26,430 nt of DNA. Origin: a virus. Its lineage: Duplodnaviria > Caudoviricetes. Made by a program: the position numbers and the translations under genes. Shown one piece after another: positions 6,957 through 26,046 of this stretch (position 1 is its first letter; the number at the start of each line of letters is the position of its first letter). Location of the stretch: IMG/VR virus record IMGVR_UViG_3300017544_000013, positions 1-26,430 of that record; one strand, 5' to 3'. The notes below the pieces were generated by a model. That model was not told the DNA's origin and searched no databases. It saw only the letters and a list, made by a program, of their open reading frames with translations.

Positions 6957-6975
6957 CTCTTCCATGGAGATCACC

Positions 6976-7358: not shown

Positions 7359-7361
7359 GAA

Positions 7362-7661: not shown

Positions 7662-7673
7662 AAGGGGCCAACG

Positions 7674-9795: not shown

Positions 9796-10109
9796 TGGCC
9801 GATCTGGTTTCGCTCCAAGAGGTCAAGAATGGCCTTCGCATCGATACTGACGATGACGACGCACACCTGAACTTGCTGATTTCTGCCGCTTCAGGTCGCG
9901 TCAAAGCCTATCTGGATGTGCGGGCCGATGAAGTCATTGACGAGAACGGTGCGACCACTGATGCGCGTGTGAAAACCGCTGCGATCATGCTGGTTGGCTA
10001 CTACTACCGCAATCCAGACCAAGACCCGGATAAGGATTTCTCGGTGGGTATGTTGCCGAAGCCGGTTTCGTCCATGCTGTACCAACTCCGCGACCCGATT
10101 GCGAGGTAG
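9795..10109 (+). CDS. Head-tail connector protein (HK97 gp6-like)
   Basis: VSLQEVKNGLRIDTDDDDAHLNLLISAA...AIMLVGYYYRN. Confidence 0.92.
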   Translation: MADLVSLQEVKNGLRIDTDDDDAHLNLLISAASGRVKAYLDVRADEVIDENGATTDARVKTAAIMLVGYYYRNPDQDPDKDFSVGMLPKPVSSMLYQLRDPIAR

Positions 10110-10112
10110 GCC

Positions 10113-10466
10113 ATGGCAGACAACCGCTCCGCAGGGAGCCTTTATTACAAGGTGGCGCTGCTGAAACGCGAAGACGTTGACGACGGCATGGGCAACACGG
10201 TCGGCCAAGAATGGGTCGAGCAGTTCCAAACCCGCGCCGAGTTCATCCACCTTCGCGGGTCCGAAGCCGTCATGGCTGGCCGCCTTCAAGGCAAGCACAC
10301 ACAGGTCATCCGTGTCCGCAACTCGTCCAACACGCGCCTTATATCCACGGACTGGATGCTTCGGGATATTCGCACCGGAAAATCGTTCAATATCAGAGAT
10401 ATAGAGCACGAAGTTAACCGCCAGTTCATCGCGCTCACGTGCGAAAGCGGCGTAGCTACGGGGTGA
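10113..10466 (+). CDS. Head closure / head-tail adaptor protein (SPP1 gp16-like)
   Basis: AGSL, DDGMGN...W, IRVR, FNIRDI motifs; synteny. Confidence 0.88.
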   Translation: MADNRSAGSLYYKVALLKREDVDDGMGNTVGQEWVEQFQTRAEFIHLRGSEAVMAGRLQGKHTQVIRVRNSSNTRLISTDWMLRDIRTGKSFNIRDIEHEVNRQFIALTCESGVATG

Positions 10467-10470
10467 TGTC

Positions 10471-10905
10471 ATGGTGGAGGGGCTTGATCGTCTTAAGCGC
10501 AAGTTGACCAAGACAATCCCGACCGCTGTTGTTGATGCTACCGTCAAGGCGATGGAGCAAGGTGCGGATGAAGTTGTCTCAATGATGCGGCGGCTTGTTC
10601 CGAAAGATACTGGCAAGCTTGCGGCTACAATTAATTGGACGTGGGGTGAAGCTCCTGAAGGGTCACTGACACTGGGACGGTCCAAAACCGCTGCAAACGG
10701 ATTACGCATCACGATTTATGCCGGCGATATGTCAACGATGGTTGGTGAGCGAAGTCAGTTCCAGCTTGCAAGATTGCAGGAGTTCGGAACCCAGCACATG
10801 CAAGCCAACCCATACTTTTTCCCGTCATGGCGCGCATCGCGTAAGCGAGTGAAGGGACGGATAACGAGACAGATGCGAAAAGCAATCAAGGATGGCTCGA
10901 AGTGA
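10471..10905 (+). CDS. HK97 gp10-family tail component
   Basis: VEGLDRL, VPKDTGKL, QEFGTQHMQANPYFFP. Confidence 0.92.
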   Translation: MVEGLDRLKRKLTKTIPTAVVDATVKAMEQGADEVVSMMRRLVPKDTGKLAATINWTWGEAPEGSLTLGRSKTAANGLRITIYAGDMSTMVGERSQFQLARLQEFGTQHMQANPYFFPSWRASRKRVKGRITRQMRKAIKDGSK

Positions 10906-11303
10906 ATATCTCAGAAGAGCTTCAGCGGTATCTCTACGCTAAATTGCGCACGGTTCCAGAAGTAACAACCTTGGCTAGCGGACGTGTTTATGACCGTGTG
11001 CCAGAAGATAAGTCGTTCCCGTACATCAGTTTTGGACCGTCTGACATTGTTGACGATAGTGCGGAATGTATCGAGGCGGAAACTCATACCATCCAGCTCG
11101 ACGCATGGTCGCGAGCCGTGGGTAAGGGTGAATGTAAGAACCTGGTTGACGGCATCAAGAAAGCGCTCCAGCGCGACACGCCTGAGCTTTCGGACAATGC
11201 AATCGTGGAAATGACCGTGCCGTTTACGAGGATCGTCACGGACCCTGACGGACTAACCACACACGGCATAATCCAGGTGGAAATAAGAGTGGAGATCGCG
11301 TGA
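10902..11303 (+). CDS. Tail completion/terminator protein (DUF3168-like)
   Basis: GRVYDRVP...FPYISFG, LDAWSR, DPDGLTTHG. Confidence 0.88.
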   Translation: MNISEELQRYLYAKLRTVPEVTTLASGRVYDRVPEDKSFPYISFGPSDIVDDSAECIEAETHTIQLDAWSRAVGKGECKNLVDGIKKALQRDTPELSDNAIVEMTVPFTRIVTDPDGLTTHGIIQVEIRVEIA

Positions 11304-11506
11304 TGGCATGGGCAATCTTTAAGGTTGAGTGCAACTGGTCTCGTCCAAAAAGTCGGTTCTCGTTCAATGCGAAGGCGTCACCGGAACCACAAGAACGCCC
11401 GCAAGATTTCATTGATTTTTGCGTATCGAAGGGATGGGCAGAGCGCGTCCAAAGCCCTTCACGCGACCAGAAACGCGCCCTGAAGGGCCGTAACCGGGCG
11501 AAATAA
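11300..11506 (+). CDS. Small hypothetical protein between tail terminator and tail tube
   Basis: Overlaps the upstream stop (GTGATG; start 11300 or 11303); GGAG SD. Confidence 0.65.
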   Translation: MMAWAIFKVECNWSRPKSRFSFNAKASPEPQERPQDFIDFCVSKGWAERVQSPSRDQKRALKGRNRAK

Positions 11507-11583
11507 GCCCATTCACCTGAAACCGGGCCTCAAGCCCTTTTAAGGCTGGCAATTGCTGGCCCGTTTTCGCATGGAGAAAGCAC

Positions 11584-12039
11584 ATGGCTACCAAGCCGAC
11601 TACCGCCGCATTCCCTGATTTCATCCTTGAAGTCGAAACCGATACGCCGGGAACGTTTACCAAGATTTGCGGCATCACTCAGCGCGGCATCAATCGCCAG
11701 CACAACATGCAGACCACTGAAGTCCCGCAGGACTGCGACGACGAAAGCCTGCCGAGCGCGGTCGAACGCGCAATCCAGTCGTCTGAAGTGACGATTTCTG
11801 GGTCTGGCGTCTGGGCATCTCAGAGCCACGAAATGATGTTGGACTGGTGGTACCTGGGCCAGACCAAAAACATCCGTATCAAGCACGTGAAAGCGGCTGT
11901 TGGAGACACGGAATACGAAACCGGTCCAGCAATCCTCGTCAACCTCAACAATGCTGTTGAGAAGGGTCAGAAGGTCAACGCCGAGATTGAAATTCAGTTT
12001 GATGGTGTTCCTGAACGTACCGCTAAGGTCACTCCATAA
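11584..12039 (+). CDS. Major tail tube protein (GTA/TP901-type)
   Basis: FTKICGIT, DCDDES, TISGSGVW motifs; GGAG SD; synteny. Confidence 0.88.
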   Translation: MATKPTTAAFPDFILEVETDTPGTFTKICGITQRGINRQHNMQTTEVPQDCDDESLPSAVERAIQSSEVTISGSGVWASQSHEMMLDWWYLGQTKNIRIKHVKAAVGDTEYETGPAILVNLNNAVEKGQKVNAEIEIQFDGVPERTAKVTP

Positions 12040-12440
12040 TGGCTAAAGCGTTGACGTGGGCAGGCGGGGAGCATGATTTCGAACTCCGCCTTGAACATCT
12101 TCGTGCGCTTCAGGACAAGTGTGATGCAGGGCCAGAATGGATACTGGCCCGCCTATCAAGCAAGCAATGGATGGTTGATGACGTAATTCAGCCGATCCGC
12201 CTTGGGCTTGAAGGTGGCGGGATGGAGAAAGAAGCGGCTCGAAAACTCGTACAAAAGTTTGTCGAGGACCGGCCACTAACTCTTTCCGTTCTGACGGCGC
12301 AGGCCGTTTTGATGATGGCTTTGTATGGCGATCCGGACGATCAGCCGGGGGAGCTGGACGCGGGCGAGGGGAAGACGACCCAGACCCGCTCCCGCGTGGG
12401 AAATGGAAATTCCACCGATATTACCAGTGGGCAGGAGTAA
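12039..12440 (+). CDS. Tail assembly chaperone (GTA-family gpG analogue)
   Basis: LTWAGGEHDFEL...LQDKCDAGP...IRLGLEGGGM; between tail tube and tape measure. Confidence 0.88.
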   Translation: MAKALTWAGGEHDFELRLEHLRALQDKCDAGPEWILARLSSKQWMVDDVIQPIRLGLEGGGMEKEAARKLVQKFVEDRPLTLSVLTAQAVLMMALYGDPDDQPGELDAGEGKTTQTRSRVGNGNSTDITSGQE

Positions 12441-12583
12441 TCCACCGCGACGTTGGGAAAATGACGCTGTGGGAGTTTTCGTGCGCCATCGAAGGCCATC
12501 AAGCTTTCAATCGTGGCGATGAAAAAGCCGCGCCTGAGATAAGCAACGACACTTTGGCAGAGCTTGGAATTGAGGGCTTCTAA
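12347..12583 (+). CDS. -1 frame extension of the tail chaperone (gpT analogue)
   Basis: The -1 frame is open from G GGG GAG (12347) to TAA 12583, encoding ...GKMTLWEFSCAIEG...; the stop overlaps the tape measure ATG. Confidence 0.7.
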   Translation, partial: GGAGRGRGEDDPDPLPRGKWKFHRYYQWAGVIHRDVGKMTLWEFSCAIEGHQAFNRGDEKAAPEISNDTLAELGIEGF

Positions 12584-15168
12584 TGGCAACGGACGTTGAA
12601 CGGCTCATCGTGTCTCTTGAGGCCCGCACCAAGGCTTTCGAGAATGCCCTGAACCGGGCAAACGGAACAGCCAATAAGCGAGCGCGCCAGATTGAGAAGC
12701 GTTTTGCGGATATGAACAAAAACATATCTGCTACGTTTTCTAATTCGCTCAAGAACGCAACGGCGCTCGCGGGTGTTGGCCTAAGCGCACGTGAAGTCAT
12801 TCAGTACGCCGATGCTTGGACGCAGGCAGGCAACATGATCCGGGCAGCGGCGGCTTCGGCTGGCGTTCAGGTGCGCACCCTCGAACAATTGAACGCGGGC
12901 GCTAACGATGCTCGCGTAAGCCTGACAGACTATGCCGATCTGTACGCTAGGCTCATTCGTTCCGCGTCCGGTGTTGCTAAATCTGAAGAAGAAATCGCAC
13001 TCGCGACCAACCTTGTATCCAAGGCGTTCAAAGCGGGCGGCGCATCCGCGCAAGAACAGGCAGCGGGCATTCTTCAGCTTGGTCAAGCGCTCGGTTCTGG
13101 CGTCCTCCAAGGTGACGAACTTCGCTCCATTCGCGAAAATGCGCCTATCGTTGCAAAGGCAATCGCGGACGAGTTCAAGGTTTCCATCTCGGGCCTTAAG
13201 CAGCTCGGCGCAGATGGAAAGCTAACGTCGGATCGTGTTTTTCGCGCAATCATCAATGCACAGAAGGGCATAGAAGAGCAGTTTCGTGCGACTAACGCCA
13301 CGATTGGCGATAGCTTCACCAAGCTTGCTAACAATCTGACGCAGTACATCGGGCAGGCAAACGAAGCCTACGGCATCACCGCAACTGTTGGCGGGATCGT
13401 GAATGCTCTTGCTGATAATATCGGCTTGGTGGCGAACTCAGCAGCCGCTGCCGCCGTTGTCCTACTGTCTCAGTATGTCCCAGCAATGGCGCGAGTTGCT
13501 GTCGCTGGCGCGGCTATGGTTGCGACAAACCCATTCCTGTTGCTTGCTGCTGGAATTGGCGCCGCCACCTTCGCGATTTCGGCTTTTGGCGACCAGATAC
13601 AGCCAATTGCTGGCGAAATGGCTAATCTTCAGGATTATGCTGCTGTAGCATGGGATGCCCTGAAGCAAGGCGCTATGGATGTCGCGTCACTGGTGCGCGA
13701 TGACTTTCTATCTGCGATCAACCTGATTTCCGAGGCACTGTCTGGAACGAAGGTAACTTGGGAAGATGTTTGGAACACAGCAAAAGGCGTTGCCAATAAT
13801 ATAATCGGGGCGATTGGCTTCCTTTATGATGCGACCGTTATCACATTCACGAAGCTTCCCGGCGCTGTAGCGGAAGCGGTTATCAACGCCATGAACTCGA
13901 TGATCGCCGGGATAGAGGCCGGTCTTCAGAAGGCGTTGAACGGGATTAATGCTGTTTCAGCCGCACTGAATAAGCTGGATAGCTTCGTAGGTGTCGCGCC
14001 GACGCTGCCGGAAAACCTGACTGTTGAACTTGGTCGCTTGGATAACAAGTACGCAGGCGCGGGTAAGGAGGCTGGCGATGCTTACGGCGCGGCCCTTCAG
14101 AAAGCTGCCGAAGACCATCTTGGCAAAATTGGCGAAGCGTGGCGAGAACAGGCTAACGCTCGTGCACGTCAACGGACTGCCGATGCAAAGGACCAAGACC
14201 TTATCGCGCCAAACAGGACGGCAAACACGGCTGGGTTTGGTGGTGGTTCGGGCGCATCAGCAGACGGCGATGGAGGCAAGAAAAAGAGAGGGCGCAAGGA
14301 ACGCCAGAATGAGCTTCAGCGCGAGATAGAGCAGATAAAGGAGCGGACAGCTACGCTTCAGGCCGAAACCGCAGCGCAAGCTCAGATTAACCCGCTGATT
14401 GATGATTACGATTACGCAATCACGAAGGCGAGGGCCACGCAAGAGCTTTTGAATGCGGCAAAGAAGGCTGGCATTGAGATAACGCCTGCGCTGAAAGAAC
14501 AAATCAACGGACTGGCTGAAGGTTATGCTCATGCAACTGCTGAGGCTAACAAACTGGCCGAAAGTCAGGAGCAGGCGAGGGAAGCCGCTGACTTCTTCAA
14601 GAACAGTATGCTTGACGCCTTCCAGTCAATGGTTCCGACGATTGAAACCGGGAACAAGGCGCTCGATAAGTTCCTGAATACGCTTATTGAAGCCGTCATT
14701 CAGGCAACCTTGTTGGGTAAAGGGCCATTGGCCGGTTTGTTTGGCGGCGGAGGACTGTTCAAAGGTGGCGGTCTGCTTGGCGGTGCCATTATTCCCGGCA
14801 TTCTTCACAGTGGCGGTGTAGCTGGCTCCGATGGGTACGGTCACGGTAGAGCAGTTTCGCCATCAGCCTTTTCCGGCGCAAAGCGCTACCACCGGGGCGG
14901 GATTGCCGGTCTACAACCAGGTGAAATACCTGCAATTTTGCAACGTGGCGAGGTTGTCCTTCCGCGCAACTCCAAGATTGGAGGCGGAAGCACGGAAACC
15001 ATCAACGTCGTTCTCAGGGATGACAGTGGCCGAATGGCCCAGATAGCCGATCAGCGTATTCAGACAGCATCAGGTGCAATTGTTCAGGTTTCGGTGCAGC
15101 AAAGCGCCAAGGCTGTTCAATCGAACTTCCCGACTATGTTGGCCGATGCTCAGGCAAGGAAGATGTAA
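12583..15168 (+). CDS. Tail tape measure protein
   Basis: 861 aa, Ala-rich helical; QLGQALGSGVLQGDELRSIRENAP motif; C-terminal HSGG/YHRGG...GEIPAILQRGEVVLP. Confidence 0.95.
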   Translation: MATDVERLIVSLEARTKAFENALNRANGTANKRARQIEKRFADMNKNISATFSNSLKNATALAGVGLSAREVIQYADAWTQAGNMIRAAAASAGVQVRTLEQLNAGANDARVSLTDYADLYARLIRSASGVAKSEEEIALATNLVSKAFKAGGASAQEQAAGILQLGQALGSGVLQGDELRSIRENAPIVAKAIADEFKVSISGLKQLGADGKLTSDRVFRAIINAQKGIEEQFRATNATIGDSFTKLANNLTQYIGQANEAYGITATVGGIVNALADNIGLVANSAAAAAVVLLSQYVPAMARVAVAGAAMVATNPFLLLAAGIGAATFAISAFGDQIQPIAGEMANLQDYAAVAWDALKQGAMDVASLVRDDFLSAINLISEALSGTKVTWEDVWNTAKGVANNIIGAIGFLYDATVITFTKLPGAVAEAVINAMNSMIAGIEAGLQKALNGINAVSAALNKLDSFVGVAPTLPENLTVELGRLDNKYAGAGKEAGDAYGAALQKAAEDHLGKIGEAWREQANARARQRTADAKDQDLIAPNRTANTAGFGGGSGASADGDGGKKKRGRKERQNELQREIEQIKERTATLQAETAAQAQINPLIDDYDYAITKARATQELLNAAKKAGIEITPALKEQINGLAEGYAHATAEANKLAESQEQAREAADFFKNSMLDAFQSMVPTIETGNKALDKFLNTLIEAVIQATLLGKGPLAGLFGGGGLFKGGGLLGGAIIPGILHSGGVAGSDGYGHGRAVSPSAFSGAKRYHRGGIAGLQPGEIPAILQRGEVVLPRNSKIGGGSTETINVVLRDDSGRMAQIADQRIQTASGAIVQVSVQQSAKAVQSNFPTMLADAQARKM

Positions 15169-15228
15169 TGAGCAAAGAAACCGATGGTCCTGATATTCTT
15201 GACGATAGAATACGCAAGGCGGCTGGGG

Positions 15229-15447
15229 CTATTGTAACCTTGCCGAATTGTCGAACTCCAAGACATCGATCAGGTTCCGAAACATGTCCCTGCCTTTGTC
15301 GGAGGTTAGCGTCTCTTTTTGCCGCCTTAATACGGCGGCGGTAATCTCTGCAAAACCTCTGTCGTGTTCTCGTATGGCGTTACAGATCGCATTCAATGCG
15401 GCTGTCATGTCGGTGATGTAGTCAGCGTCGTCTTGATGCATTGCCAT
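15229..15447 (-). CDS. Small antisense hypothetical protein inserted in the tail operon
   Basis: 72-aa amphipathic helical ORF occupying the gap between tape measure and the next tail gene. Confidence 0.55.
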   Translation of the reverse strand: MAMHQDDADYITDMTAALNAICNAIREHDRGFAEITAAVLRRQKETLTSDKGRDMFRNLIDVLEFDNSARLQ

Positions 15448-15512
15448 GGTCTCATTTTTGAACTGCCGTCATATTGATAGATGGCGGTTAAAGTTTCGCT
15501 ACGAGGGTCATC

Positions 15513-16190
15513 ATGACAATTCTCTGGCCTCGTTCGGTTCTCAAACCGAAGCGCGACCCGTTCAATATTGCCCCGCGTACACTCGCAGGACCTTCCAGTG
15601 TATCGGGCGTGACGCAGGTTACGGCTTCGGACGCCGGTATCTGGAAGGCGACGTTCAGCGACATCATTATTCGTCGTGGATCGCCTTCCGTTCTTGCATT
15701 TCGGGCTATTGCAAATCTGCTGGAAGGTCGTTTGCGTCCGATCCTGGTTCCTCGCTGTTGCGCTTATCAACCGTTCGATCCTGACGGCAACGGCGCAGCG
15801 GATAAGGTGCCTCATTCGGATACAAGCCCGTTCAGTGACGGTGGACTGTACCGCTCCCGATCAATCGATATCCGCCTGACCAGCAACATACCGCTGCGCG
15901 GGACGACGGCGAACATATCGCTTGTTACGGCAGGCCAATTGCAGCCGGGGATGGATTTCTCCATCGGAGAGCGGATGTACCGTATTCGGACAGTTCAGAT
16001 GACGGGCGAGAATACGGCGACAATCACATTCCGTCCTCCGGCCCGCGAGGCAGCGCCAGCCGGAAGCGAACTGGAGTTCGATTATCCAGTGTGCCGGATG
16101 CGATTGGCCTCCGATAGTGAAATGGACCTCGACCTTGATCTGATTTCGCAGTGGTCATTCCCGACAGTGAATTTCGTGGAAGATGTCTGA
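15513..16190 (+). CDS. Distal tail / tail tip protein
   Basis: GAGG SD; position after tape measure; beta-rich; ITFRPPAR motif. Confidence 0.7.
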   Translation: MTILWPRSVLKPKRDPFNIAPRTLAGPSSVSGVTQVTASDAGIWKATFSDIIIRRGSPSVLAFRAIANLLEGRLRPILVPRCCAYQPFDPDGNGAADKVPHSDTSPFSDGGLYRSRSIDIRLTSNIPLRGTTANISLVTAGQLQPGMDFSIGERMYRIRTVQMTGENTATITFRPPAREAAPAGSELEFDYPVCRMRLASDSEMDLDLDLISQWSFPTVNFVEDV

Positions 16191-16780
16191 TGGCTTTCTT
16201 TGATCCGACGCAACTGGCCGAGTTCGCCAAACATGAAGTTAGGCTGGATTTCCTTGTCGAGTTCCGCTTTGCGTCCGAGACAATGCGTGTCTGGAATGGG
16301 AATACGGCGCTGGAAACTGGCGGCAACCGCTATGAACCGATGTATGGCTATGGCTCGATTGACGGCATCGGCATGGCTTCGACCACTGCCGCGCAGAATG
16401 TCACGTTCCAGCTTTCAGGCTTGCCGGATGCGACACTGAACTTTCTCGCTATGGCACTTGATGCAAATGATGAGGTAGATCAGCGCATTGTCGTTATCTC
16501 GATCCAGCTTTTCGATGAGGAATGGCAGCCACTGGGCGGTCCCGCGCCGATTTGGTGGGGCTTCATGCAGCCGCCACGCATCAGCCGCACCGAAATGCAG
16601 GGTACAGAAGGGGCAATTCAGTCGATCAGCATGACGGCAGAAAACGCATTCTTCAACCGGTCACGACCTGCTTATGGCCGCTATACCGACCGAGACCAAC
16701 AGCGCCGTTCACCCGGTGACAAATTCTGTCAGTTCATCGGTTCGCTGCTCTTCAAGAGCTTTAAATACCCGGATTACTGA
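16190..16780 (+). CDS. Minor tail tip protein
   Basis: TGATG coupling; RYTDRDQQRRSPGDKFCQF motif common in siphophage tail-tip proteins. Confidence 0.75.
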   Translation: MAFFDPTQLAEFAKHEVRLDFLVEFRFASETMRVWNGNTALETGGNRYEPMYGYGSIDGIGMASTTAAQNVTFQLSGLPDATLNFLAMALDANDEVDQRIVVISIQLFDEEWQPLGGPAPIWWGFMQPPRISRTEMQGTEGAIQSISMTAENAFFNRSRPAYGRYTDRDQQRRSPGDKFCQFIGSLLFKSFKYPDY

Positions 16781-16784
16781 TCCC

Positions 16785-17168
16785 ATGAACATTGCCGAGT
16801 TTGTAACTGCCGAGGCGCAAAAGCCTTTCCGGTGGGGAGAGACTGATTGTGTTTCGACCGTGGACCGCTGGATACGGTCATGCACTGGCCGCTCGCCGCT
16901 CGCTTGGGTTGATCGCGAGTATTCGGACGCTGAGGGGGCGGCATCGGTCTTGTCAGACCGTGGCGGGCTGGCTGTGCTGGTCAACCGGGCAATGCGCTCA
17001 CAGGGGTTCATTAAGACCGGCCAGCCTGTGACCGGCGATGTCGGTTTGATCATCCATAACGGCAAACTGTGCATGGCGATCCATGTAGGCGATTGCTGGT
17101 TCTCGCACGATGAGCAGGGCTTCGTCGGAGCACCGCTCAATTCTGTCTGGAAGGCTTGGAGATTGTAA
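16785..17168 (+). CDS. NlpC/P60-like tail assembly protein (DUF6950-like)
   Basis: PFRWGETDC motif, GDVG, C-terminal AWR; position equivalent to lambda K. Confidence 0.8.
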   Translation: MNIAEFVTAEAQKPFRWGETDCVSTVDRWIRSCTGRSPLAWVDREYSDAEGAASVLSDRGGLAVLVNRAMRSQGFIKTGQPVTGDVGLIIHNGKLCMAIHVGDCWFSHDEQGFVGAPLNSVWKAWRL

Positions 17169-18940
17169 TGGCCGTAGCTCTTTCAGGCATCATTGCATCC
17201 GTGGTTGGCGCAGGCGCGCTTGGCGCTGCCCTGCAGACAGGTCTTGCCCTCATCACGCTTGCCGCCGGTACGACGCTCGGCAGTCTGGCTATCGGGCTCG
17301 GTATTTCTTATCTGGCATCGTCGCTGTTTCGTCCAAAGCAGCCCAAGCCGGAAGATGTGCAGCAGCAGGTTCGCCAGCCTACGCCGCCCCGCATTCGCCA
17401 CTATGGCCGCGTGAAAACTTCCGGTGCCTGGATATTCGCCGAAACCCAGAGCGGCGGCTTCTTCAAGGTTCTTGCCTTGGGGCAAGGCCCATTCGATGGG
17501 ATTGAAGAGTATTGGCTTGACGATCAGAAGATCGATTTGCTGCCGGATGGCTCACCGACGCCGCCGAGCAAATGGCGCGAAGGAACGACGGGAAATCCGC
17601 TCTTGCGCATTCAGTCGCGCCTCGGTGCGCCTGTCGAGACGGCATACAGCGAATTGACATCGAAGTTCCCTCAGTGGACGGCTGCGCACCGTGGCGACGG
17701 AATAGCATCGTTGCTCGCCTGCCAATATGCAGTCGGTGACGAGTATTATCTAAGCCTCTTCCCGAACGGCGTGAACACGAACTATCGCGTCGTGGCCCGC
17801 ACGTCACTCGTCAAAAACCCGGTCACGGGTGCAGTCGCTTGGAACGATAACGCTGCCGCAGTGATCCGGGATTACATGACCCATAAGGACGGCATGCGCC
17901 TTCCAGAAAGCCTCGTTTCAACGCCGCTTGCTCAGGCTGGTTGGGTTGCAGCGTACAACCGCGCCGCCGAAGCAATTCCTATTGCTGTTGGCGGTACTGA
18001 ACCTCGCTATCGTCTCTGGGGTTCATACAGCCTTGATGAGCGTCCGGCTGACGTATTAGGCCGAATGCTGGGTTGTTGCGATGGCAGGCTGGTCCCGACG
18101 CCAGACGGTGGCCTTACGCTTGATATCGGGGCATGGTCCGAGCCAACAGTCGTACTGACCGCTGACGCGATCACCGGCTTCAGCGATGTTGGCCGTGGCC
18201 GCGACGTGATGACGACGGCCAATACCATCCGGGCAACGTTCCTCGATCCGAACCAAGACTATCAGGCATCCGATGCCGATCCTTGGGCAGACGAAGACGA
18301 TGTGTCGGTACGCGGCGAAGAAGCCAGAGACGTTCAGTTCAATATGGCACCGTCACACAGCCAAGCCAGACGACTGATGAAGCTCGAATGGTTCCGAGCA
18401 AACCCGAATTGGGTAGGGACTTTCAATACGAACCTGATGGGTCTTGCTGCATTCGGTGAGCGGCTGATCCGCATTCAATACCCGCTATTCGGCATCAACA
18501 GTGTGTTTGAAGTGCTCGATTTCAAGTTCATTCTTGGTGAAGGCGGCATCCTGCAAGGTGCGACTATTCAGGTTCAATCTATGCCTCAGTCGGCATACCA
18601 GTGGGATACGTCGCAGGAAGGGACTGCGCCGGTGTCAGATGAAACAACGTCAGACGATGACTTGCCCGTACCAGACGCTCCGGACGTGACCATTATTTCC
18701 GGCCCAGCGGCAGAATTGAGTTTTCCACCCACTGGCAATCCGTTGCTTAACTACATGGTCCGCTGGAAGAAAACCGCTGATAGCGAATGGCGTGTAGCTG
18801 GGCCACTCGAAAACGACGCAGAGAGCTTTGAAACGCCTACGCTTTCCGCATTAACTGAATACGAGTTCCAACTGGCTGTCCGTACACAGAAGGGCCGTAT
18901 CGGCGCTTATTCGGACAGCACAATCAAAACGACGCCCTGA
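17168..18940 (+). CDS. Tail tip / central hub protein with C-terminal fibronectin type III domain
   Basis: Hydrophobic N-terminus, YGRVKTSG, WNDNAAAVIRDY; FN3 pattern YMVRWK...W...L...TEYEFQLAV...G. Confidence 0.85.
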   Translation: MAVALSGIIASVVGAGALGAALQTGLALITLAAGTTLGSLAIGLGISYLASSLFRPKQPKPEDVQQQVRQPTPPRIRHYGRVKTSGAWIFAETQSGGFFKVLALGQGPFDGIEEYWLDDQKIDLLPDGSPTPPSKWREGTTGNPLLRIQSRLGAPVETAYSELTSKFPQWTAAHRGDGIASLLACQYAVGDEYYLSLFPNGVNTNYRVVARTSLVKNPVTGAVAWNDNAAAVIRDYMTHKDGMRLPESLVSTPLAQAGWVAAYNRAAEAIPIAVGGTEPRYRLWGSYSLDERPADVLGRMLGCCDGRLVPTPDGGLTLDIGAWSEPTVVLTADAITGFSDVGRGRDVMTTANTIRATFLDPNQDYQASDADPWADEDDVSVRGEEARDVQFNMAPSHSQARRLMKLEWFRANPNWVGTFNTNLMGLAAFGERLIRIQYPLFGINSVFEVLDFKFILGEGGILQGATIQVQSMPQSAYQWDTSQEGTAPVSDETTSDDDLPVPDAPDVTIISGPAAELSFPPTGNPLLNYMVRWKKTADSEWRVAGPLENDAESFETPTLSALTEYEFQLAVRTQKGRIGAYSDSTIKTTP

Positions 18941-19004
18941 CCAACCCGAAACTTGAGAAATTCACACCCTGCCTTGGCGGGGAGTTTTGCTATGGAGCAT
19001 CCGC

Positions 19005-20999
19005 ATGACCGTTCGCACGATTGACGAGATTTTCCGCGATTTCGTTACCGATGGCGTTCCCGCGTCCGGCCCGTTCAATCCGCATAAGCCAGATATCCGC
19101 GACACGTTGAAGGCGCTGACCGAGGGGGGCGAGACTTTCCCCGACAATCGCGTCATTCGACTGAACAACGCGAATGAAGGCACAGAAAATAATATCGTTG
19201 TGACGGCTTCTGTCGCCATTCCAGCGGCGGCATATCAGGTGCTCTATATCCTGAATGTCACACAGGAAAACACTGGTCCGGTGACAGTATCAGGCGCGAT
19301 CAATCGCGATCTGGTTACGAACATCAATCAGCCCATAGCGCCGGGTTATCTTATCCCTGGGATGGCGTTGCTCTGCATTGATACCGGAACAGAATTGCGG
19401 CTGCTGTCTTACGGCGATGCCGAAGCAATCCTCGCTGCTGCTGAAGACGCCGCCGCACGGGCCGAGGCTGCCGCCGCTGGGCTTAATCTGCCATCAACTG
19501 GAACGGGTGATAAGGGCAAGGCACTCCTCGTTAACTCTGACGCTACCGGCTATACCCTTGGTTTCGTAGAAATAACAGTTGATACCCGCTCCGATCTCAA
19601 GGCGCTGCCTGTCTTCTTCAAAACAGCCTATCTACTCGAAGCGGGACGCGAAGGCACGTTCGTTCTGAAGGCCGGTTCGCCACCCGTAGCGGACACGCAG
19701 GAAGGCGTCTACGTAGTCAGCAACACAGCTGGATATTATTGGGAGCGTGTCTATGTCGGCGCGGCATCGGCTAAGTGGTTCGGCGCAAAGGGGGATGGGG
19801 TTACAAACGATACTACGGCCATCCAAGCCTCGCTTGATGTGTGCGGCAACGTCATACTACCATACACGTCAGAGGGCTATCTAGCTGGCGGCATCAATCT
19901 TACGAGCGGCATGAGCCTGCGCGGGGAAGATGGCAAATACTCCGGGCCAGATAGCACAATCTTCGCGCCTCGCAAGTCTTGCATCAAGATTGCCGCTGCG
20001 AGTGCATATGGCGTAAAAATTAACAGCTTCATCGCTGGCAATTACACGCGGCTGGGAAATATCCAGTTTGATGGAGGTACAACTTCAGCCACAGCCGTTA
20101 GGTTGGGCCTAGCAACACTGACCGTCTATGGTGTCCGATTGAATGATATTTCGTTCATTCGTTGCGTTGAGGCCATCGGGGACGAAGTACCGAAAGATAG
20201 CACTACATGGGTGCATGATCTCGAAGTGCGTGGGATGTATTCGGGTCTCACGAGGGGTCGGCAAATTTATCTCCGCCAATCGAATGGATTTATTCTTTTC
20301 CGCGATGTTAAGATTGAAAACACGCACAACGCAGCACAGGTTACATGGGAAACGGCTCGCTTTGACAATATTGCTGGACTGGAACTTGATCGTTTTGATA
20401 TTATAGGTTCAGGGCCATTCCCGATGACCTACAACCCATCAGTAATATCTCTTGTTATTTCTGGTGGACCCGGGCTCGACGCATCCGTGTGGCTCAATCG
20501 AGTTCTCGTCGATAGCACTTGTGGACAAGGTATCGTGATTTCTGGCGTGTACAATGTTGTCAGTGAGGCGACGGGAGTCCACCTAACCTTTGGTGCAAGC
20601 TTGTCTCTCATAAACGTTACAAAATCTCGGTTTAGTAAAACTAGCGTGTTCGGGGCAAAGGGTATGACTAATGCGCCCGCCAGTGCTGAGGGGATTAGAC
20701 TTGATGGATCGAGTGATTGTCAGTTTAGCGAAACATACGTCGAGAACTGCACCGGCAACGGAATTACCCTGAACAACAGCCTTCGAAACAGCTTCCACCA
20801 AACGACAACGAGAGACAACACTGGAACTGGTTTTTACGAGGCCGGAACGTCTGATCGCAACATCAATGCTGGTCTGTATTCTTTCGGCAATGCGACGGGA
20901 TCACTTATCCAAGTAGGTGCGAGTTCAGCAACGGTTAATTGGGTTCCGAACAGCGGCGGCTTTGTCGCTAGCACACTTGGTGCGGTAACTATCGCCTAA
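19005..20999 (+). CDS. Tailspike / receptor-binding protein with pectate-lyase-like right-handed beta-helix
   Basis: GGAG SD before ATG 19005; Ala-rich linker; WFGAKGDGVTNDTTAIQA helix-cap motif; N/G/S-rich beta-helix repeats. Confidence 0.88.
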   Translation: MTVRTIDEIFRDFVTDGVPASGPFNPHKPDIRDTLKALTEGGETFPDNRVIRLNNANEGTENNIVVTASVAIPAAAYQVLYILNVTQENTGPVTVSGAINRDLVTNINQPIAPGYLIPGMALLCIDTGTELRLLSYGDAEAILAAAEDAAARAEAAAAGLNLPSTGTGDKGKALLVNSDATGYTLGFVEITVDTRSDLKALPVFFKTAYLLEAGREGTFVLKAGSPPVADTQEGVYVVSNTAGYYWERVYVGAASAKWFGAKGDGVTNDTTAIQASLDVCGNVILPYTSEGYLAGGINLTSGMSLRGEDGKYSGPDSTIFAPRKSCIKIAAASAYGVKINSFIAGNYTRLGNIQFDGGTTSATAVRLGLATLTVYGVRLNDISFIRCVEAIGDEVPKDSTTWVHDLEVRGMYSGLTRGRQIYLRQSNGFILFRDVKIENTHNAAQVTWETARFDNIAGLELDRFDIIGSGPFPMTYNPSVISLVISGGPGLDASVWLNRVLVDSTCGQGIVISGVYNVVSEATGVHLTFGASLSLINVTKSRFSKTSVFGAKGMTNAPASAEGIRLDGSSDCQFSETYVENCTGNGITLNNSLRNSFHQTTTRDNTGTGFYEAGTSDRNINAGLYSFGNATGSLIQVGASSATVNWVPNSGGFVASTLGAVTIA

Positions 21000-21017
21000 A
21001 GGCAACAGAGATGCAGA

Positions 21018-21060
21018 TTGTAAAGGCAGAGCCAGATTGCTATAGGTCTGGCTCATTTTA
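21018..21060 (+). promoter_or_regulatory. Putative sigma70 promoter overlapping a terminator-like hairpin
   Basis: TTGTAA(21018-23)-N17-TATAGG(21041-46) with a TG extension; GAGCCAGA/TCTGGCTC inverted repeat 21029-21054 followed by ATTTT. Confidence 0.5.
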
Positions 21061-21070
21061 GTATCATGGA

Positions 21071-22303
21071 TTGTGTCAAGTGCTGGATCATATAACCATC
21101 TTTCTTCCGATCGCTTACCGTGGCGGCTCCCTGAGGGTCACAAAAACTATCGCTAAAATGATCCGAGTTGGTAGCAATTATAATTGCGGTGTTCGGATTG
21201 CGGTCTTGGAAGGGGCGTACGACCTCCTTTCGGAGTTCAACGATGTCTATAAATTAGGTGTTGATGTTCGCGAGTTCAGTTGGAGCGATGCTACCGCCGA
21301 AGAGGTAAACTTCTCGAACTTTATTCAAGGGCGCCAGAGAAAGCTAAATCACGAAAAATATTATCTGCCAAATGACGGCGTAGATAATTTCATGAAATCG
21401 GACTTGTGGTTTATTGTTTCTGATCGACTTACAAAGCCGATAGCGCCAGTTCGACCGTATGTAGTTTTTGCGACAGACTATATCCAGCGCTATGTACCCG
21501 GCATCTTTCCAAAGGAGGGGTGGGGCACTATAGATATGTCGTTTTTATATACTGTCAGAGACGCAGATGCTATCGTTACCACAACCCCTCAGACGAAGAA
21601 GGATACCGTTTCGTTTGTCGGCGTCCCTGCGTCAAAAGTTCATCTGGCACCGATGGATTTTGATCCAACTGCCTTCCCTGAAGTCGATTACACCAACCTC
21701 AAACCGCAAGATCATATCATTTGGCCGACTAATCCTACACCTCATAAAAACCATGTGCGAGCGTTCGAAGCGCTAGAGAGATATTATGGGCGTTTAGGCG
21801 GCAGTCTTAAGATTAAGATTGTCGGTCCAAACACTGGATGGCTGGATCCGAAGCAGGAGTTGCCGGACTGGCTCAGCGGCAATAAACACATCACAGACGC
21901 CCGAAAAGTATTAGAAACTCACAAGGACCTGTCCGACATGGTCGAATTCTTGGGCGAAGTGTCAGATGACCAGTATGCTTCCTTGGTATCAAGCGCCGAA
22001 TTTATGTGGCATCCGACATTAATAGATAATGGCACTTTTGCGGTAGCAGAGGCTGCGTGGTTTAAATGCCCATCATTATCCAGCGGATACCCTCAGATGA
22101 GGTATATTGGCGAACGCTTCTCGATCCCTATGAAGTTCTTCAATGCAAGTTCTGTGAAAGAGATGTCAGAAGCTCTGCGTGACATGGAGAAAGATGTCGA
22201 TATCTGGCGGAGTGGCCTTCCATCGCAGCAGAGCCTCTCTAGGCACACGTGGGAACATTATTCAAAAGAATACTGGAATATGCTTCAAGGAATAGCAGCA
22301 TGA
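21071..22303 (+). CDS. wboA: GT4 (GT-B) glycosyltransferase, WboA-like (start may be GTG 21080)
   Basis: YRGGSLRVTK, FATDYIQRYVP, WPTNPTPHKNH, WHPTLIDNGTFAVAEA, YPQMRYI; matches my recollection of Brucella WboA along its length. Confidence 0.8.
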   Translation: MCQVLDHITIFLPIAYRGGSLRVTKTIAKMIRVGSNYNCGVRIAVLEGAYDLLSEFNDVYKLGVDVREFSWSDATAEEVNFSNFIQGRQRKLNHEKYYLPNDGVDNFMKSDLWFIVSDRLTKPIAPVRPYVVFATDYIQRYVPGIFPKEGWGTIDMSFLYTVRDADAIVTTTPQTKKDTVSFVGVPASKVHLAPMDFDPTAFPEVDYTNLKPQDHIIWPTNPTPHKNHVRAFEALERYYGRLGGSLKIKIVGPNTGWLDPKQELPDWLSGNKHITDARKVLETHKDLSDMVEFLGEVSDDQYASLVSSAEFMWHPTLIDNGTFAVAEAAWFKCPSLSSGYPQMRYIGERFSIPMKFFNASSVKEMSEALRDMEKDVDIWRSGLPSQQSLSRHTWEHYSKEYWNMLQGIAA

Positions 22304-23898
22304 AGAATTTGGGCATTATTCTAGGTTTCACCCCCCGTGAACTCGTCCCACACGAGGGAATTGCAAGGCTTATTGGCTTCGTCGTCAGGGGGGCCGTCAA
22401 TTCTCCAGAGGTATCGGTCACGATCGCTGGGCCAGCTTGGCTTCGCAAAGAAATAAAGTATTTGCTTGAAGATGCGGGAATAGACCCTCAAAAAGTCGAT
22501 TTAGTCACCACGAGCGGAGAACCATTTCTGATCCGGTTCTGGAGATTGTCTCAGCGATTTAAACGAAAGGCTAGGCCAACTGTTCGTAGGAACAGGTTAA
22601 TGGGATTGTTGACACGAGTACTTAGCTACATTGTTGCTTGGCTTTCAAGTGCTTCGATCTTCACTTTTCTAGCTGGTGGAGTTGTTTTTGCTTTGCTTGC
22701 AATAGTTTTCGCGATCCCCGTCTTGATTGGAGGAACAGCGGTTGCGGCATTCTTGATTTATCGGCGGTTCTCTCCCCGCATAAAAAGTAGCAAACTCTAC
22801 AAGGTGCGTAAGTGGCTTTCGGCCAAGATAGGGTATGTTATCAGCACCGTAGGACCGCTGGACAAAGTTAGGTCGGCTGAACTGGACCGTTTGGTTAAAA
22901 AGCTAAACAAACGGCGAGATATAGATGTCTGGTATGTTCCTTCCATGTTTTGGCCGGAAGTAAGTAACCTACAGGGCAAGGTTCTCATGGCTGCTCCAGA
23001 CATTGTCTTTTATGAGCACCCGGCTCAATTTTTATCGCCTGGTGATGAAAGAATGCTCGGACGCATGACGAAGAGCATTGCAGCCGCTGATCACCTTATC
23101 TGCTATAGCGACTATGTTAAGCAAAATCATATCGTTAAACACCATAACGTACCGTCAGATCGCGTGCATGTCATACGGCACGGTTACGTTGATACTGCAT
23201 CGATTGAGAAAGGCGACGGTTCCAAGGAAAGCGCTCTTGAAGTGTTGCATAAGTATATTGATGACAAGAACAATGATTTGCCCGAGTACCTGCGTGGTTT
23301 TAGGTTTGATGATGTAGATTTTCTGTTTTATTCATCGCAAGTCCGGCCCCACAAAAATATTGAAAGCTTGATTGTTGTATTTGAGCGACTTCTAAGGGAG
23401 CACTACAGGCCCATTAAGTTGGTGCTGACTGGAAGGGTTCTAGGCAATCCGCGGCTCAAACATATTATCGATACGTATGGTTTAGGCAGAGACGTGATAT
23501 CGCTACCATCTATACCGAACCACGTTCTGGCAGCGCTGTATAGGCTGGCGACCGTTTCTGTCACGCCAACTCAATTTGAAGGTGGCTTTCCATTTACCTT
23601 CTCAGAGGCATACTCAGTCGGAACGCCTTCGGTAATGAGCCGTATTCCGGTGGTAGAAGAGTTAATAGACGATAAAAACTTGCTGGAGAAAATGACCTTT
23701 AACCCGCACAATAAGCGGGAGATGTTGGATCGAATTTTGTGGGCTTTGGACAACAGAGAAGAGCTTATAGCGTTGCAGAAGCCGCTATTCGATAAGTTCA
23801 GCGCTCGATCTTGGGACCTTGTCGCAAACGAGTATGTTGATTTGGCCGTCAATATCGCGTCTGGTCAAATGAACGGAATTGAAGATCGATCAAGGTAG
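22300..23898 (+). CDS. wboB: GT4 glycosyltransferase with an internal membrane hairpin, WboB-like
   Basis: ATGA coupling to the wboA-like gene; RPHKN and FEGGFPFTFSEA GT4 motifs; ~45-aa hydrophobic segment; symbol inferred mainly from synteny. Confidence 0.7.
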   Translation: MKNLGIILGFTPRELVPHEGIARLIGFVVRGAVNSPEVSVTIAGPAWLRKEIKYLLEDAGIDPQKVDLVTTSGEPFLIRFWRLSQRFKRKARPTVRRNRLMGLLTRVLSYIVAWLSSASIFTFLAGGVVFALLAIVFAIPVLIGGTAVAAFLIYRRFSPRIKSSKLYKVRKWLSAKIGYVISTVGPLDKVRSAELDRLVKKLNKRRDIDVWYVPSMFWPEVSNLQGKVLMAAPDIVFYEHPAQFLSPGDERMLGRMTKSIAAADHLICYSDYVKQNHIVKHHNVPSDRVHVIRHGYVDTASIEKGDGSKESALEVLHKYIDDKNNDLPEYLRGFRFDDVDFLFYSSQVRPHKNIESLIVVFERLLREHYRPIKLVLTGRVLGNPRLKHIIDTYGLGRDVISLPSIPNHVLAALYRLATVSVTPTQFEGGFPFTFSEAYSVGTPSVMSRIPVVEELIDDKNLLEKMTFNPHNKREMLDRILWALDNREELIALQKPLFDKFSARSWDLVANEYVDLAVNIASGQMNGIEDRSR

Positions 23899-23907
23899 GA
23901 GGGCTTT

Positions 23908-24180
23908 ATGTCTCGTGATGAGGACTATTCGCAACTGTTCCGATTGCAGTATGAGATGATTGATCGTCTCAAAGGCGAAACAGCCGCCTTACAGATGCTC
24001 TTGAAGGGTGTGATTGCGGAAATTGCTTCGATTGAAAACGGCAAGGAACTTGTCGCCAATGCATTCGAAAGCGCTATGGACGCCACAATCCCATTGTCGC
24101 ACGATCCTACCAAAACGACAGCATTTGGAACGCGAGCTATTGGCCTTCTGGACCAGTGGCGTAACGAGCTGAACGTTTAG
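23908..24180 (+). CDS. Hypothetical helical protein, last gene of the glycosyltransferase cassette
   Basis: 90 aa; strong AGGAGG SD; 9 nt after the wboB-like stop. Confidence 0.75.
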   Translation: MSRDEDYSQLFRLQYEMIDRLKGETAALQMLLKGVIAEIASIENGKELVANAFESAMDATIPLSHDPTKTTAFGTRAIGLLDQWRNELNV

Positions 24181-24204
24181 AATTTATCACACCGTCGACT
24201 GACC

Positions 24205-24233
24205 AAGCCGCCCACTGAGGCGGCTTTTTCTTT
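24205..24233 (+). terminator. Rho-independent terminator of the glycosyltransferase cassette
   Basis: AAGCCGCC-cactga-GGCGGCTT followed by TTTCTTT. Confidence 0.85.
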
Positions 24234-24441
24234 GCCGAGGAAAAGAAGCGACCCCAGTAAGGTTTCAGTGAACTGGGGCCGGAGCGCCTTGGGAAACCAA
24301 GCTGAAAGCAATGATAAGCGCCCGGTCTCACATTAAAGGCGCGATTGTTAACATTTTAATTCGTGCCCAAAAAAAACCTCGGAGCTGGGAAGGTCGCCTA
24401 TGGGTATGGGCATAGGGCGCGCGTAATTGCGCGTCTTGCGC

Positions 24442-24470
24442 AAAAGAAAAACCTCGGTCTAGCCGGGGTT
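24442..24470 (-). terminator. Rho-independent terminator of the hicBA-like operon
   Basis: On the - strand: AACCCCGG-ctaga-CCGAGGTT then TTTCTTTT, 3 nt after the hicA stop. Confidence 0.7.
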
Positions 24471-24473
24471 GCG

Positions 24474-24671
24474 TCAGAAGGATTTCGCTAGGCCTGCCTG
24501 CTTCAATGATGCGTTCGCTGTGTACTTGGATAGCGAACCCTTATCGACAGTGAAGTTTCGATTGCTGATAGGGCTATACCATATCTCATGATCTCCCTTA
24601 CCGGGACGGACGTATTTGCAGCCATTGGCTTTCAATATGTCCGTGAGTTCCCGGTAAAAGCCCTTAACCAT
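24474..24671 (-). CDS. hicA: HicA-family toxin (mRNA interferase)
   Basis: 65 aa; LKANGCKYVRPGKGDHEIW with the catalytic His; C-terminal LKQAGL. Confidence 0.9.
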   Translation of the reverse strand: MVKGFYRELTDILKANGCKYVRPGKGDHEIWYSPISNRNFTVDKGSLSKYTANASLKQAGLAKSF

Positions 24672-24925
24672 TAGTGAGCGGCAACGGCATGCATGCTAAA
24701 GGTTGATTGAACGCATACTTCAAGAAGGTCGGACATTTCGTCCTTCTTGTTCAGCAGATGTGCATTATCTTCCAGAAGCTCGGGGGCAACAGCCACCACA
24801 CGCTTCACAAGGTCATCAATGGTCTTCGCTTCAGAAACGAGGCCGGGAATATCATCACTGGTTGCGACCCATACGCCCGCTTCCTCATCCCATTGAGCAA
24901 CGACGAGATATTTTCTCATGCTCAT
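24671..24925 (-). CDS. DUF1902 / HicB-like antitoxin lacking a DNA-binding domain (start 24925 or 24919)
   Basis: AQWDEEAGVWVATSDDIPGLVSEAKTIDDL; TAATG coupling to hicA; purine-rich SD upstream. Confidence 0.85.
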   Translation of the reverse strand: MSMRKYLVVAQWDEEAGVWVATSDDIPGLVSEAKTIDDLVKRVVAVAPELLEDNAHLLNKKDEMSDLLEVCVQSTFSMHAVAAH

Positions 24926-25090
24926 ACCCCTTTTTCTCCCGTGCTGATCGTTAAGCACGATTGTTCGCAATATGCAAGACGCACAACGAACTCGGAGCAA
25001 TTTTGCTCCATGACAATAAAATAAGTGTGAAAGCTAGAAACGGCAATCGCACGAATAATTAACAATCCGTCATAAAACAAGGAAACGAAC

Positions 25091-25774
25091 ATGACACGAC
25101 GCATCAACGCGGCGGGGCTTTCGCTTGTCAAGCAGTGGGAAGGCCTGAAAACGACGGCATATCGAGACGTAGCCGGAGTTCTGACTATCGGTTACGGCCA
25201 TACGAGTGCGGCTGGATCGCCCAAGGTAACGCCGGGCATGGCTATCGGTGACAAGGAAGCCGAGCTCATCCTGAAGTCCGATCTGGCGAAGTTTGAGGCG
25301 AGGGTGGAGCGTTTGGTGAAGGTTCCGCTGACCGACAATCAGTTCGCCGCGCTCGTTTCGTTCGATTTCAACACCGGGGCGCTGGACAAGTCCACGCTGC
25401 TGAAGAAGCTGAACAAGGGCGATTATGCCGCTGTCCCGGTCGAACTCATGAAGTGGGTGAATGCTGGCGGCAAGAAGGTGCAGGGCCTTGTCAATCGCCG
25501 GGCCGCTGAAGCTGGTCTCTGGGCGAAAGGCGATTTCGTATCGTCCAACTACGTTCCAGCGAAGACGGCAGCCAATAAGACTGATGTCGCCACGATTAGC
25601 GGTGCCGGTGCTGCTGGTGCGGCGGCAACGGTCGGCCCTGTCATTCCTGAAATTGTTAGCACCATCTCCAATCAGCAGGACGAATTGTCTAGCGGTCAGT
25701 GGGTACGTGTGGCGATTGCCGCTGTGATTGTCGCCCTTACCCTCTGGGGCATCTGGCGGAAGACGCGCTCATGA
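25091..25774 (+). CDS. Endolysin, GH24 phage lysozyme with C-terminal hydrophobic segments
   Basis: E-x8-D-x5-T triad (EGLKTTAYRDVAGVLTIGYGHT), QFAALVSFDFN, GLVNRRAAE; C-terminal VRVAIAAVIVALTLWGIWRK. Confidence 0.93.
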   Translation: MTRRINAAGLSLVKQWEGLKTTAYRDVAGVLTIGYGHTSAAGSPKVTPGMAIGDKEAELILKSDLAKFEARVERLVKVPLTDNQFAALVSFDFNTGALDKSTLLKKLNKGDYAAVPVELMKWVNAGGKKVQGLVNRRAAEAGLWAKGDFVSSNYVPAKTAANKTDVATISGAGAAGAAATVGPVIPEIVSTISNQQDELSSGQWVRVAIAAVIVALTLWGIWRKTRS

Positions 25775-26046
25775 TCTGGGCGCTCATTCCCACATGGCTG
25801 AAATACTCGCTCGCTGCCCTTGTGGCGGCGTTTCTGCTTCTGGCGGGTGGATATGCTGCCGGAACCATCAAAGAGCGCCAGCGGGCCGCATTGGCGGCGG
25901 CAGAGGCCACAGCCAAGGCAATCCAGAAAAGGGCGAACATCGATGAAAAGATTATCGGTATGGATGCTATTGCTCTCTGCAATGAGCTTGGCGGCTTGCC
26001 AGAGCAATGCAACGAACTGCGCGGGTTGGAAGGCGATCAGCCTTAA
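25771..26046 (+). CDS. Rz: Inner-membrane spanin (Rz-like)
   Basis: ATGA overlap with the endolysin; N-terminal TM then an Ala-rich helix; overlaps a lipoprotein ORF. Confidence 0.75.
   Translation: MIWALIPTWLKYSLAALVAAFLLLAGGYAAGTIKERQRAALAAAEATAKAIQKRANIDEKIIGMDAIALCNELGGLPEQCNELRGLEGDQP

Follow-up and report, generated by a model that had tools for sequence, protein, structure and literature searches.

Among the O-antigen conversion morons of temperate phages are gtrABC of P22 and SfV, the oac/OafA acetylases, and the polymerase swaps of epsilon15 and D3. In Brucella, mutants of wboA, wboB, wbkA, and wbkE are described as lacking the O-chain (PMC2453230, PMC2698832). The first two genes (BMEI0998 and BMEI0997) lie on genomic island GI-2, whose phage origin is already in print, as are its phage integrase and excision (PMC4176087, PMC4700419), and wboA is listed on predicted prophages (PMC11076708). 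The temperate Brucella phage BiPBO1 is reported to have lysed many smooth strains of Brucella but neither B. canis nor B. ovis (PMC4729917). Here we describe a pair of WboA/WboB-family glycosyltransferases, GT1 and GT2, encoded at 21018-24233 of the viral record IMGVR_UViG_3300017544_000013 (hereafter the window, i.e., the whole 26,430-nt contig), between tailspike and lysis genes. The pair is placed by family membership, fold, slot, and tree position, and by the per-wzm-wzt context of its homologs; a split of O-chain genes between host chromosome and prophage occurs in two genomes as well as in Brucella. The pair is probably a lysogenic-conversion moron whose products complete or rewrite a perosamine O-chain.

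A WboA/WboB pair in the slot behind the tailspike

The cassette and the genes upstream of it are as follows:

17156..18940, + strand: tail hub or central fibre, 590-594 aa, a conserved backbone marker (PHROG tail fibre)
18987..20999, + strand: tailspike-like protein (PHROG tailspike; weak Beta_helix/pectate-lyase Pfam matches under cut-off)
21018..21054, + strand: candidate alphaproteobacterial promoter, TTGTAA-N16-CTATAG (boxes 21018-21045), with the -10 box inside the loop formed by a 10-bp inverted repeat (21029-21054)
21080..22303, + strand: GT1, WboA-family GT-B (GT4-like) glycosyltransferase, 407 aa, GTG start; 47.6% identity over 410 aa to Brucella WboA
22300..23898, + strand: GT2, WboB-family GT4 glycosyltransferase, 532 aa, ATGA overlap with GT1 (PF00534, E 7e-21)
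23908..24180, + strand: 90-aa three-helix protein (model pLDDT 86.8)
24205..24236, + strand: intrinsic terminator-like hairpin (24205-24226; z -2.06) closing the cassette

Both glycosyltransferases are full-length homologs of their Brucella counterparts, beyond the domain-level similarity of GT4 enzymes. GT2 is 45.2% identical over 520 aa to the Brucella 519-aa glycosyltransferase encoded downstream of WboA, and is named WboB by the position and consecutive accessions of that counterpart (WboA is named in its cluster). The GTG start of GT1 agrees exactly with the collection's protein. The structural model of GT1 (pLDDT 89.9) has a GT-B fold whose best fold matches are GT4-type enzymes at 10-15% identity, and its Pfam score lies under the curated cut-off. 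The acidic catalytic-site residues are intact in both proteins and invariant across both families (D319-X7-E327 in the WboA family, E427-X8-E436 in the WboB family). By hydropathy, GT1 has no membrane segment, and GT2 has a hydrophobic segment at residues ∼107-155. No solved structure matched the WboA profile by sequence, and one distant structure matched that of WboB; no NCBIfam family scored above its cut-off, and Rfam gave no match. Among 82 relatives of GT1 at E<=0.001, the Brucella WboA cluster ranks 32nd; the nearest named relatives are a 95% identical copy in Brucella sp. LJL56, followed by Mesorhizobium, Rhizobium, and Chelativorans proteins (52-59%). The relatives of GT2 rank in the same order, with the LJL56 copy likewise at 95%. 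A search of the annotated phage collection yielded no WboA relative.

The contig reads as the late operon of a BiPBO1-like siphovirus (terminase, protease, capsid, portal, connectors, tail tube, tape measure, Dit, hub, tailspike, endolysin, spanin). It ends in the lysis region and bears no integrase or repressor, and temperate life is therefore inferred from relatives, which carry integrases or lie in host genomes. GI-2, for comparison, is marked by an integrase and a tRNA-Gly attachment site. GC content is 46.9% in the cassette versus 55.5% in the virion genes (2727-18940), and the drop starts within the C-terminal half of the tailspike gene (49.7%); as expected of a moron, the cassette combines a break in composition with a slot that varies among close relatives. 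A preliminary description of the window, made from the sequence alone, had proposed that two coupled glycosyltransferase genes and a 90-aa gene form an AT-richer unit with a candidate promoter and terminator, set in an apparently intact virion operon, and had pointed to three motifs of WboA. These points hold: the coordinates, overlap, and composition bear out the unit, both candidate signals are present, and the operon genes (TerS/TerL through spanin) are full-length open reading frames (ORFs) with PHROG matches. The motifs YRGGSLRVTK, FATDxIQRYVP, and WHPTLxDNGTF all occur in GT1, with single changes in Brucella WboA.

The WboA gene lies right after a tailspike-like gene in all six viral loci that bear it, and is accompanied by WboB in five. 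The two complete phage records among them carry integrases; the complete wbo-bearing phage G004 (L068 7338-8309) also has a BstA abortive-infection gene. Of 37 loci from a search with the hub, ten were set aside, five because the sequence stops within or shortly past the tailspike region and five because no tailspike follows the hub. In 23 of the 27 relatives thus considered, the slot holds genes for glycosyltransferases, acyltransferase-3 enzymes, or Gtr-like or RgpF proteins, many of them in reverse orientation, and in three it holds the WboA/WboB pair; two pairs of these loci are near-duplicates. Judging from this gene content, the slot behind the tailspike is a glycan-modification hotspot. 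WboA/WboB alleles 45-60% apart hold it in several phage backbones. In L031, the pair is inverted, and is thus independent of the direction of the late transcript. In one further locus, L066 (7058-11699), the decayed tail region contains a defence island, made up of a methylase-Vsr-EcoRII-like set and KwaB behind a fragment of the hub gene.

The pair in L031 (10721-13021) is of a long form, as in L077 (547-2850), in which WboA has a ∼365-aa N-terminal extension without a Pfam match; this form also occurs in chromosomal clusters. A 284-aa gene 5' of wboA in L003 was considered as the other half of a split long-form gene and dropped, since the sequences do not match. The acyltransferase-3 genes of L002 (13161-14288) or L012 (13124-14269) and of L039 (11264-12541) are 38% alike; the former follows a wbo pair, and the latter stands alone behind a tailspike 58% like that of the window. 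The 90-aa protein gave no fold match at E<=0.001. In a profile search of 73 sequences (72 loci and the window), its family occurs only in the window, L031, L002, and L012, always beside the pair; G003, G005, and the portions retrieved of G439 and G194 (genomes introduced below) do not contain the gene. An IraP-like identity, suggested by an Atlas lead (0.87, under the reliable range), was set aside after the negative fold search, and an inhibitor role would be a guess.

The tailspike joins a conserved N-terminal attachment part to a swapped, low-GC beta-helix C-terminal part; a sequence search of solved structures gave nothing useful for this protein. In comparison with the GI-2-type provirus G003, BiPBO1, and the prophage of genome G439, its first 140 aa are 87-100% identical, and its last 350 aa 25-34%. 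When 32 tailspike C-termini were clustered (L040, L012, L044, L046, and L060 dropped), the eight wbo-bearing phages fell in three of 19 clusters, five of them in the window's cluster of seven (permutation p=0.0012, a descriptive value because kin share labels). The tailspike head and the glycosyltransferase pair appear to travel together, as L014, with a hub only 34% like the window's, resembles G003 and Brucella in both (tailspike C-terminus 68% like that of G003; position near Brucella WboB in the tree).

Perosamine context, host genomes, and transcription

Of nine genome loci that contain a WboA relative, six have a per-like gene of the DegT family upstream, five of them with wzm/wzt-like genes between; L011 has only an ABC ATPase, L009 is too short, and L004 has none. 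The chromosomal WboA/WboB homologs of distant bacteria (Gammaproteobacteria, Chlamydiae) follow per-wzm-wzt. This context ties the family to perosamine O-chains exported by Wzm/Wzt, and the donor sugar of the window allele is presumably N-acyl-perosamine.

Two genomes whose hubs are 96% identical belong to a genus of 44 genomes, the likely host genus, which by its likeness to BiPBO1 is presumably Brucella (with Ochrobactrum); the host is presumably an Ochrobactrum-type member of the Brucellaceae. Of the 44 genomes, 43 were scored: ten have the hub-type prophage gene, one a WboB relative, and one a close per. The WboB relative and the close per occur together in one genome, G439 (a chance of 1/43, or 1/10 among prophage bearers). 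WboA/WboB are absent from its chromosomal cluster, which holds gmd, per, wzm, and wzt along with two other GT4 genes, a PerB-like acetyltransferase, manBCA, and rml genes. The one match to each of WboA and WboB in this genome lies in a prophage whose hub is 99% and tailspike 57% identical to those of the window, with the pair inverted against the late operon. In a family sample of 400 genomes, per was found twice. In G194, the cluster (GT4-manB-manC-gmd-per-wzm-wzt-PerB) is again without the pair. A separate contig carries the single WboB match and a WboA-like neighbour, flanked by a tailspike-like gene (41% over 406 aa to the window's) on one side and an amidase on the other, with integrase and capsid genes nearby. 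G197 has per and a distant WboA-like gene in one cluster, and gave no WboB match. The host genomes are drafts without a completeness figure, and the G439 cluster lies at a contig end; the WboA profile, which matched 2 of 401 family genomes, missed the long form of G194, and misses in these searches are therefore weak. In Brucella, wboAB and wbk are reported to be present or absent together (PMC5353553, PMC10285381), and the second wboA-like gene described inside wbk of two atypical Brucella (PMC3445970) fits the loss of a chromosomal copy.

The gap between tailspike and wboA contains a TTG-N-CTAT promoter-like pattern in the window, L002/L012, and L015/L016 (1-2% of shuffles each), not in L013 or L014, the pattern having been chosen after inspection of the gaps. 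L015 and L016, both GI-2-type loci, conserve the cassette terminator at 95% over 40 nt. Four of 24 listed sequencing runs were compared with the window, the RNA runs having been found using 19500-25100. Contigs of two RNA runs from different studies (X3 and X5), at least 99% alike to the window, cover 56% and 34% of 20401-25050 versus 2.4% and 0% of 6500-20400, based on 8 of 9 and 6 of 6 listed pieces, and none lies over the lysis genes. Run X21 covers only scraps of the window, and a DNA run, possibly from the sample that yielded the window, covers all 30 bins. Both RNA contig sets begin near 20430-20450 and end at 25001, upstream of a toxin-antitoxin pair. One further feature comes from these contigs:

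20450-21025 (X3) and 20429-21006 (X5), unstranded: RNA-run contigs over the 3' end of the tailspike gene, deeper than over the glycosyltransferase genes in both runs

This RNA (20429-21025) may reflect a sense start within the tailspike gene, or antisense transcription that begins at the palindromic CTATAG site. A start near 20430 had been considered as the cassette promoter, and was demoted to one option once the gap candidate (21018-21045) was found; an extended -10-like site at 20375-20404 is not above chance. The coverage of the cassette is a weak hint of lysogen-type transcription.

Probable lysogenic conversion and its alternatives

We consider it probable, on gene context and homology, that the pair acts in lysogenic LPS (lipopolysaccharide) conversion. 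In a lysogen, it would be transcribed from its own candidate promoter in the gap, and the host chromosome would supply GDP-perosamine and Wzm/Wzt export. The hydrophobic segment of WboB may hold this enzyme at the inner membrane, and the pair would elongate a host-primed chain with N-acyl-perosamine units, to be exported by Wzm/Wzt. A new allele could give a different linkage pattern, by which the chain would no longer be recognized by the phage's own tailspike type and superinfection would be blocked, to the presumed benefit of the phage. Where a chromosomal pair has been lost, the host would come to depend on the prophage. A broader proposal, which we hold tentatively and rate at somewhat under even chances, is that prophages have repeatedly taken over O-chain elongation in Rhizobiaceae with a perosamine (wbk-type) cluster. 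The chromosome would make and export the sugar, and an exchangeable tailspike-plus-WboA/WboB module would set whether and how the chain is built. On this view, the smooth LPS of Brucella would represent prophage dependence in frozen form.

Several observations weigh against lysogenic conversion by this pair. An E. coli-type promoter scan gave two sites versus 5.5 in shuffles and did not list the candidate at 21018-21045, and the five terminator-like sites in the region compare with a shuffle mean of 4.9. The RNA contigs are unstranded, without a measure of level, and selected on the cassette stretch, with no equally selected DNA run beside them; X5 covers 7% of the two glycosyltransferase genes. 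The pairs of G439 and G194 are of the distant long form (in G439, 32-34% to the window) rather than the window allele, Rhizobium grahamii keeps a short-form pair in a chromosomal cluster beside IS66, and phage locus L013 (10001-11236) has wboA alone, with no wboB behind it. Close per occurs in only 1 of the 43 scored genomes of the likely host genus, and Chelativorans G002 has a frameshifted wboA with wboB and no per at E<=1e-60, and so a pair can sit without its pathway. The rarity of per (in the family sample as in the genus) and the decay in G002 are also what would be expected of a passenger, acquired from an O-antigen cluster and idle in a present host without perosamine synthesis. This alternative is nonetheless unlikely: both frames are intact with invariant catalytic-site residues, alleles 45-60% apart retain the same slot across several backbones, the pair tracks per and tailspike type, and RNA-run contigs cover the cassette.

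Some mycobacteriophage glycosyltransferases are reported to act on virion or other non-LPS acceptors, and the window genes, co-directional with the late operon and immediately 3' of a tail gene, could be late genes of this kind. We regard this as quite improbable, given the inversion of the pair against the late operon in L031 and G439, the chromosomal homologs that follow per-wzm-wzt, and RNA-run contigs that cover the cassette without the virion genes.

Downstream of the cassette, the window contains two further features:

24474..24925, - strand: DUF1902 (HicB-like by position) and HicA toxin-antitoxin pair (Pfam PF08972, PF07927)
25091..26046, + strand: GH24 endolysin and Rz-like spanin (89% and 80% to BiPBO1)

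The HicA/DUF1902 pair, which stands between cassette and endolysin, was overlooked in the preliminary description. A DNA-run contig joins 24238 to 24447, omitting a 208-nt hairpin-rich spacer, and represents a variant or a related phage. HicAB carries the deepest RNA-run contigs and the 90-aa protein belongs to no recognized family, as might suit a unit that is mainly an anti-phage or addiction island with incidental glycosyltransferases; this is very improbable, as HicAB was not found in 86 other loci searched and G003, G005, and the retrieved portions of G439 and G194 lack the 90-aa gene, whereas the glycosyltransferase pair recurs.

GI-2 as a sister-phage remnant and the origin of the Brucella alleles

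The preliminary description had presented GI-2 as phage-derived and proposed that a phage of this type may be the ancestor or donor of the Brucella wbo locus. Both published GI-2 end primers match G003, a 26-kb provirus record whose WboA is identical to the protein named WboA of Brucella vulpis. G003 has an integrase and a fused small-terminase/portal ORF, and no match to the large terminase or capsid of the window. Identity to the window is 87-96% across the tail terminator, tail tube, Dit, and hub (hub 93%, compared with 99% for the G439 prophage and 94% for BiPBO1), and the spanin region is 84-87% conserved between the window and GI-2-type loci. The tailspike, in contrast, falls from 87% (first 140 aa) to 25% (last 350 aa), and the two glycosyltransferases are 48% and 45% identical. 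L016 is 98-99% identical to G003, with its tailspike in three pieces. On the primer matches and near-identical tail genes, GI-2 is a decayed remnant of a sister phage that differed in tailspike head and glycosyltransferase allele.

The cassette and wboAB occupy the same slot between tailspike and lysin, which, with the nearly identical tail, indicates that a phage of this type did deliver wbo. PMC12144129 describes GI-2 as formerly larger and holding a phage tail protein, and proposes that the wbo half arrived later via another element; the colinear tail-wbo-lysin order of G003 makes a separate arrival unnecessary. A 1.5-kb match of BiPBO1 ORF29/30 in many Brucella has been considered a possible prophage remnant, with GI-2 unnamed in the accessible text (PMC4729917).

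Complementation of GI-2 deletions required wboAB together with BMEI0999, which was read as a hypothetical O-chain gene (PMC4176087, PMC4700419). The published BMEI0999 primers map to 7930 and 9700 of L015, around a tailspike ORF at 7999-9918. The B. melitensis 16M protein P0237 (483 aa) equals residues 72-554 of this 640-aa tailspike at 98%, and is 35% identical over 528 aa to the window's. The B. abortus form (514 aa) is 93 nt longer, matching a statement on the gene in PMC12144129. From primer positions, protein match, and length difference, BMEI0999 is a truncated tailspike gene. This reframes the complementation need, which may concern the protein or neighbouring regulatory DNA.

The part of the proposal that concerns the window's own allele did not hold. 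In a WboA tree of 48 rows, the window groups with Mesorhizobium, Rhizobium, and Chelativorans copies in a 29-row clade (support 100/99) that excludes Brucella WboA. A joint clade of the window group and Brucella WboA is rejected (approximately unbiased test, p=0.008, on 30 of the 48 rows after near-duplicates and long branches were dropped), and a quick WboB tree of 30 rows agrees; neither protein of the pair forms one clade with its Brucella counterpart. The glycosyltransferase DNA of the window and GI-2-type loci is largely unalignable. On these trees, the cassette is a cousin, not the source, of Brucella wboA/wboB. That it could be their ancestor or direct donor is barely credible: slot, terminator, and tail genes are shared with the GI-2-type provirus, but the proteins are only 45-48% identical, the joint clade is rejected, and L014, on an unrelated backbone, comes nearer to Brucella in WboB and to G003 in tailspike C-terminus.

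Significance and comparison with known systems

The origin of the Brucella O-antigen locus gains a concrete setting, in which GI-2 corresponds to the tail-tailspike-wboAB-lysin part of a BiPBO1-like prophage and living sister phages carry other alleles. A literature search, with few subscription papers and without the original GI-2 papers or supplements (Table S1 of PMC12144129 may describe the longer element), found no report of intact phages with the pair, of BMEI0999 as a tailspike, or of a chromosome/prophage split in other Rhizobiaceae, and no literature on LJL56 or on wbcT/wbcU with perosamine. A type of conversion is suggested in which the phage provides core chain-building enzymes rather than decoration.

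Like the known O-antigen conversion morons, the cassette places low-GC surface-glycan genes with candidate signals of their own beside a tailspike, and in relatives this slot is taken by Gtr-like or acyltransferase-3 genes. It differs in that the pair is predicted to help build an ABC-exported O-chain rather than to decorate one or to swap Wzy, and in that, for pairs of this type, some hosts show no chromosomal copy. The chromosomal gmd-per-wzm-wzt-GT-GT-PerB clusters of Gammaproteobacteria and Chlamydiae contain the two genes in identical order (some records give WboB the name WbcU), although there the pair is chromosomal and WboA often has the ∼365-aa N-terminal extension.

BiPBO1 shares the tail module (83-91% in nucleotides; 87-99% in amino acids across the BiPBO1-like siphoviruses compared), the lysis region (84%), and the tailspike cluster with the window. 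It differs in capsid, portal, and terminase (TerL 22%, portal 24%, no capsid match) and in the acyltransferase-3 gene in its slot; the window is thus a mosaic. Its head module (2727-9795), unrelated to that of BiPBO1, has the portal gene 3' of the capsid gene, and its TerL is 57% like that of G005. The acyltransferase-3 gene of BiPBO1 is gp32 (L001 20853-22001), considered a possible holin and left open by its authors (PMC4729917).

The closest likeness is to the Brucella wbo genes on GI-2, which share the two-gene family, the coupling, the slot, the terminator, the promoter-like pattern, and tail genes at 87-96%. The alleles are nevertheless 45-48% identical and in separate clades, the lysin is GH24 in the window versus GH108, and the window has an additional 90-aa gene, HicAB, and an intact head and tail, whereas GI-2 and G003 are decayed.

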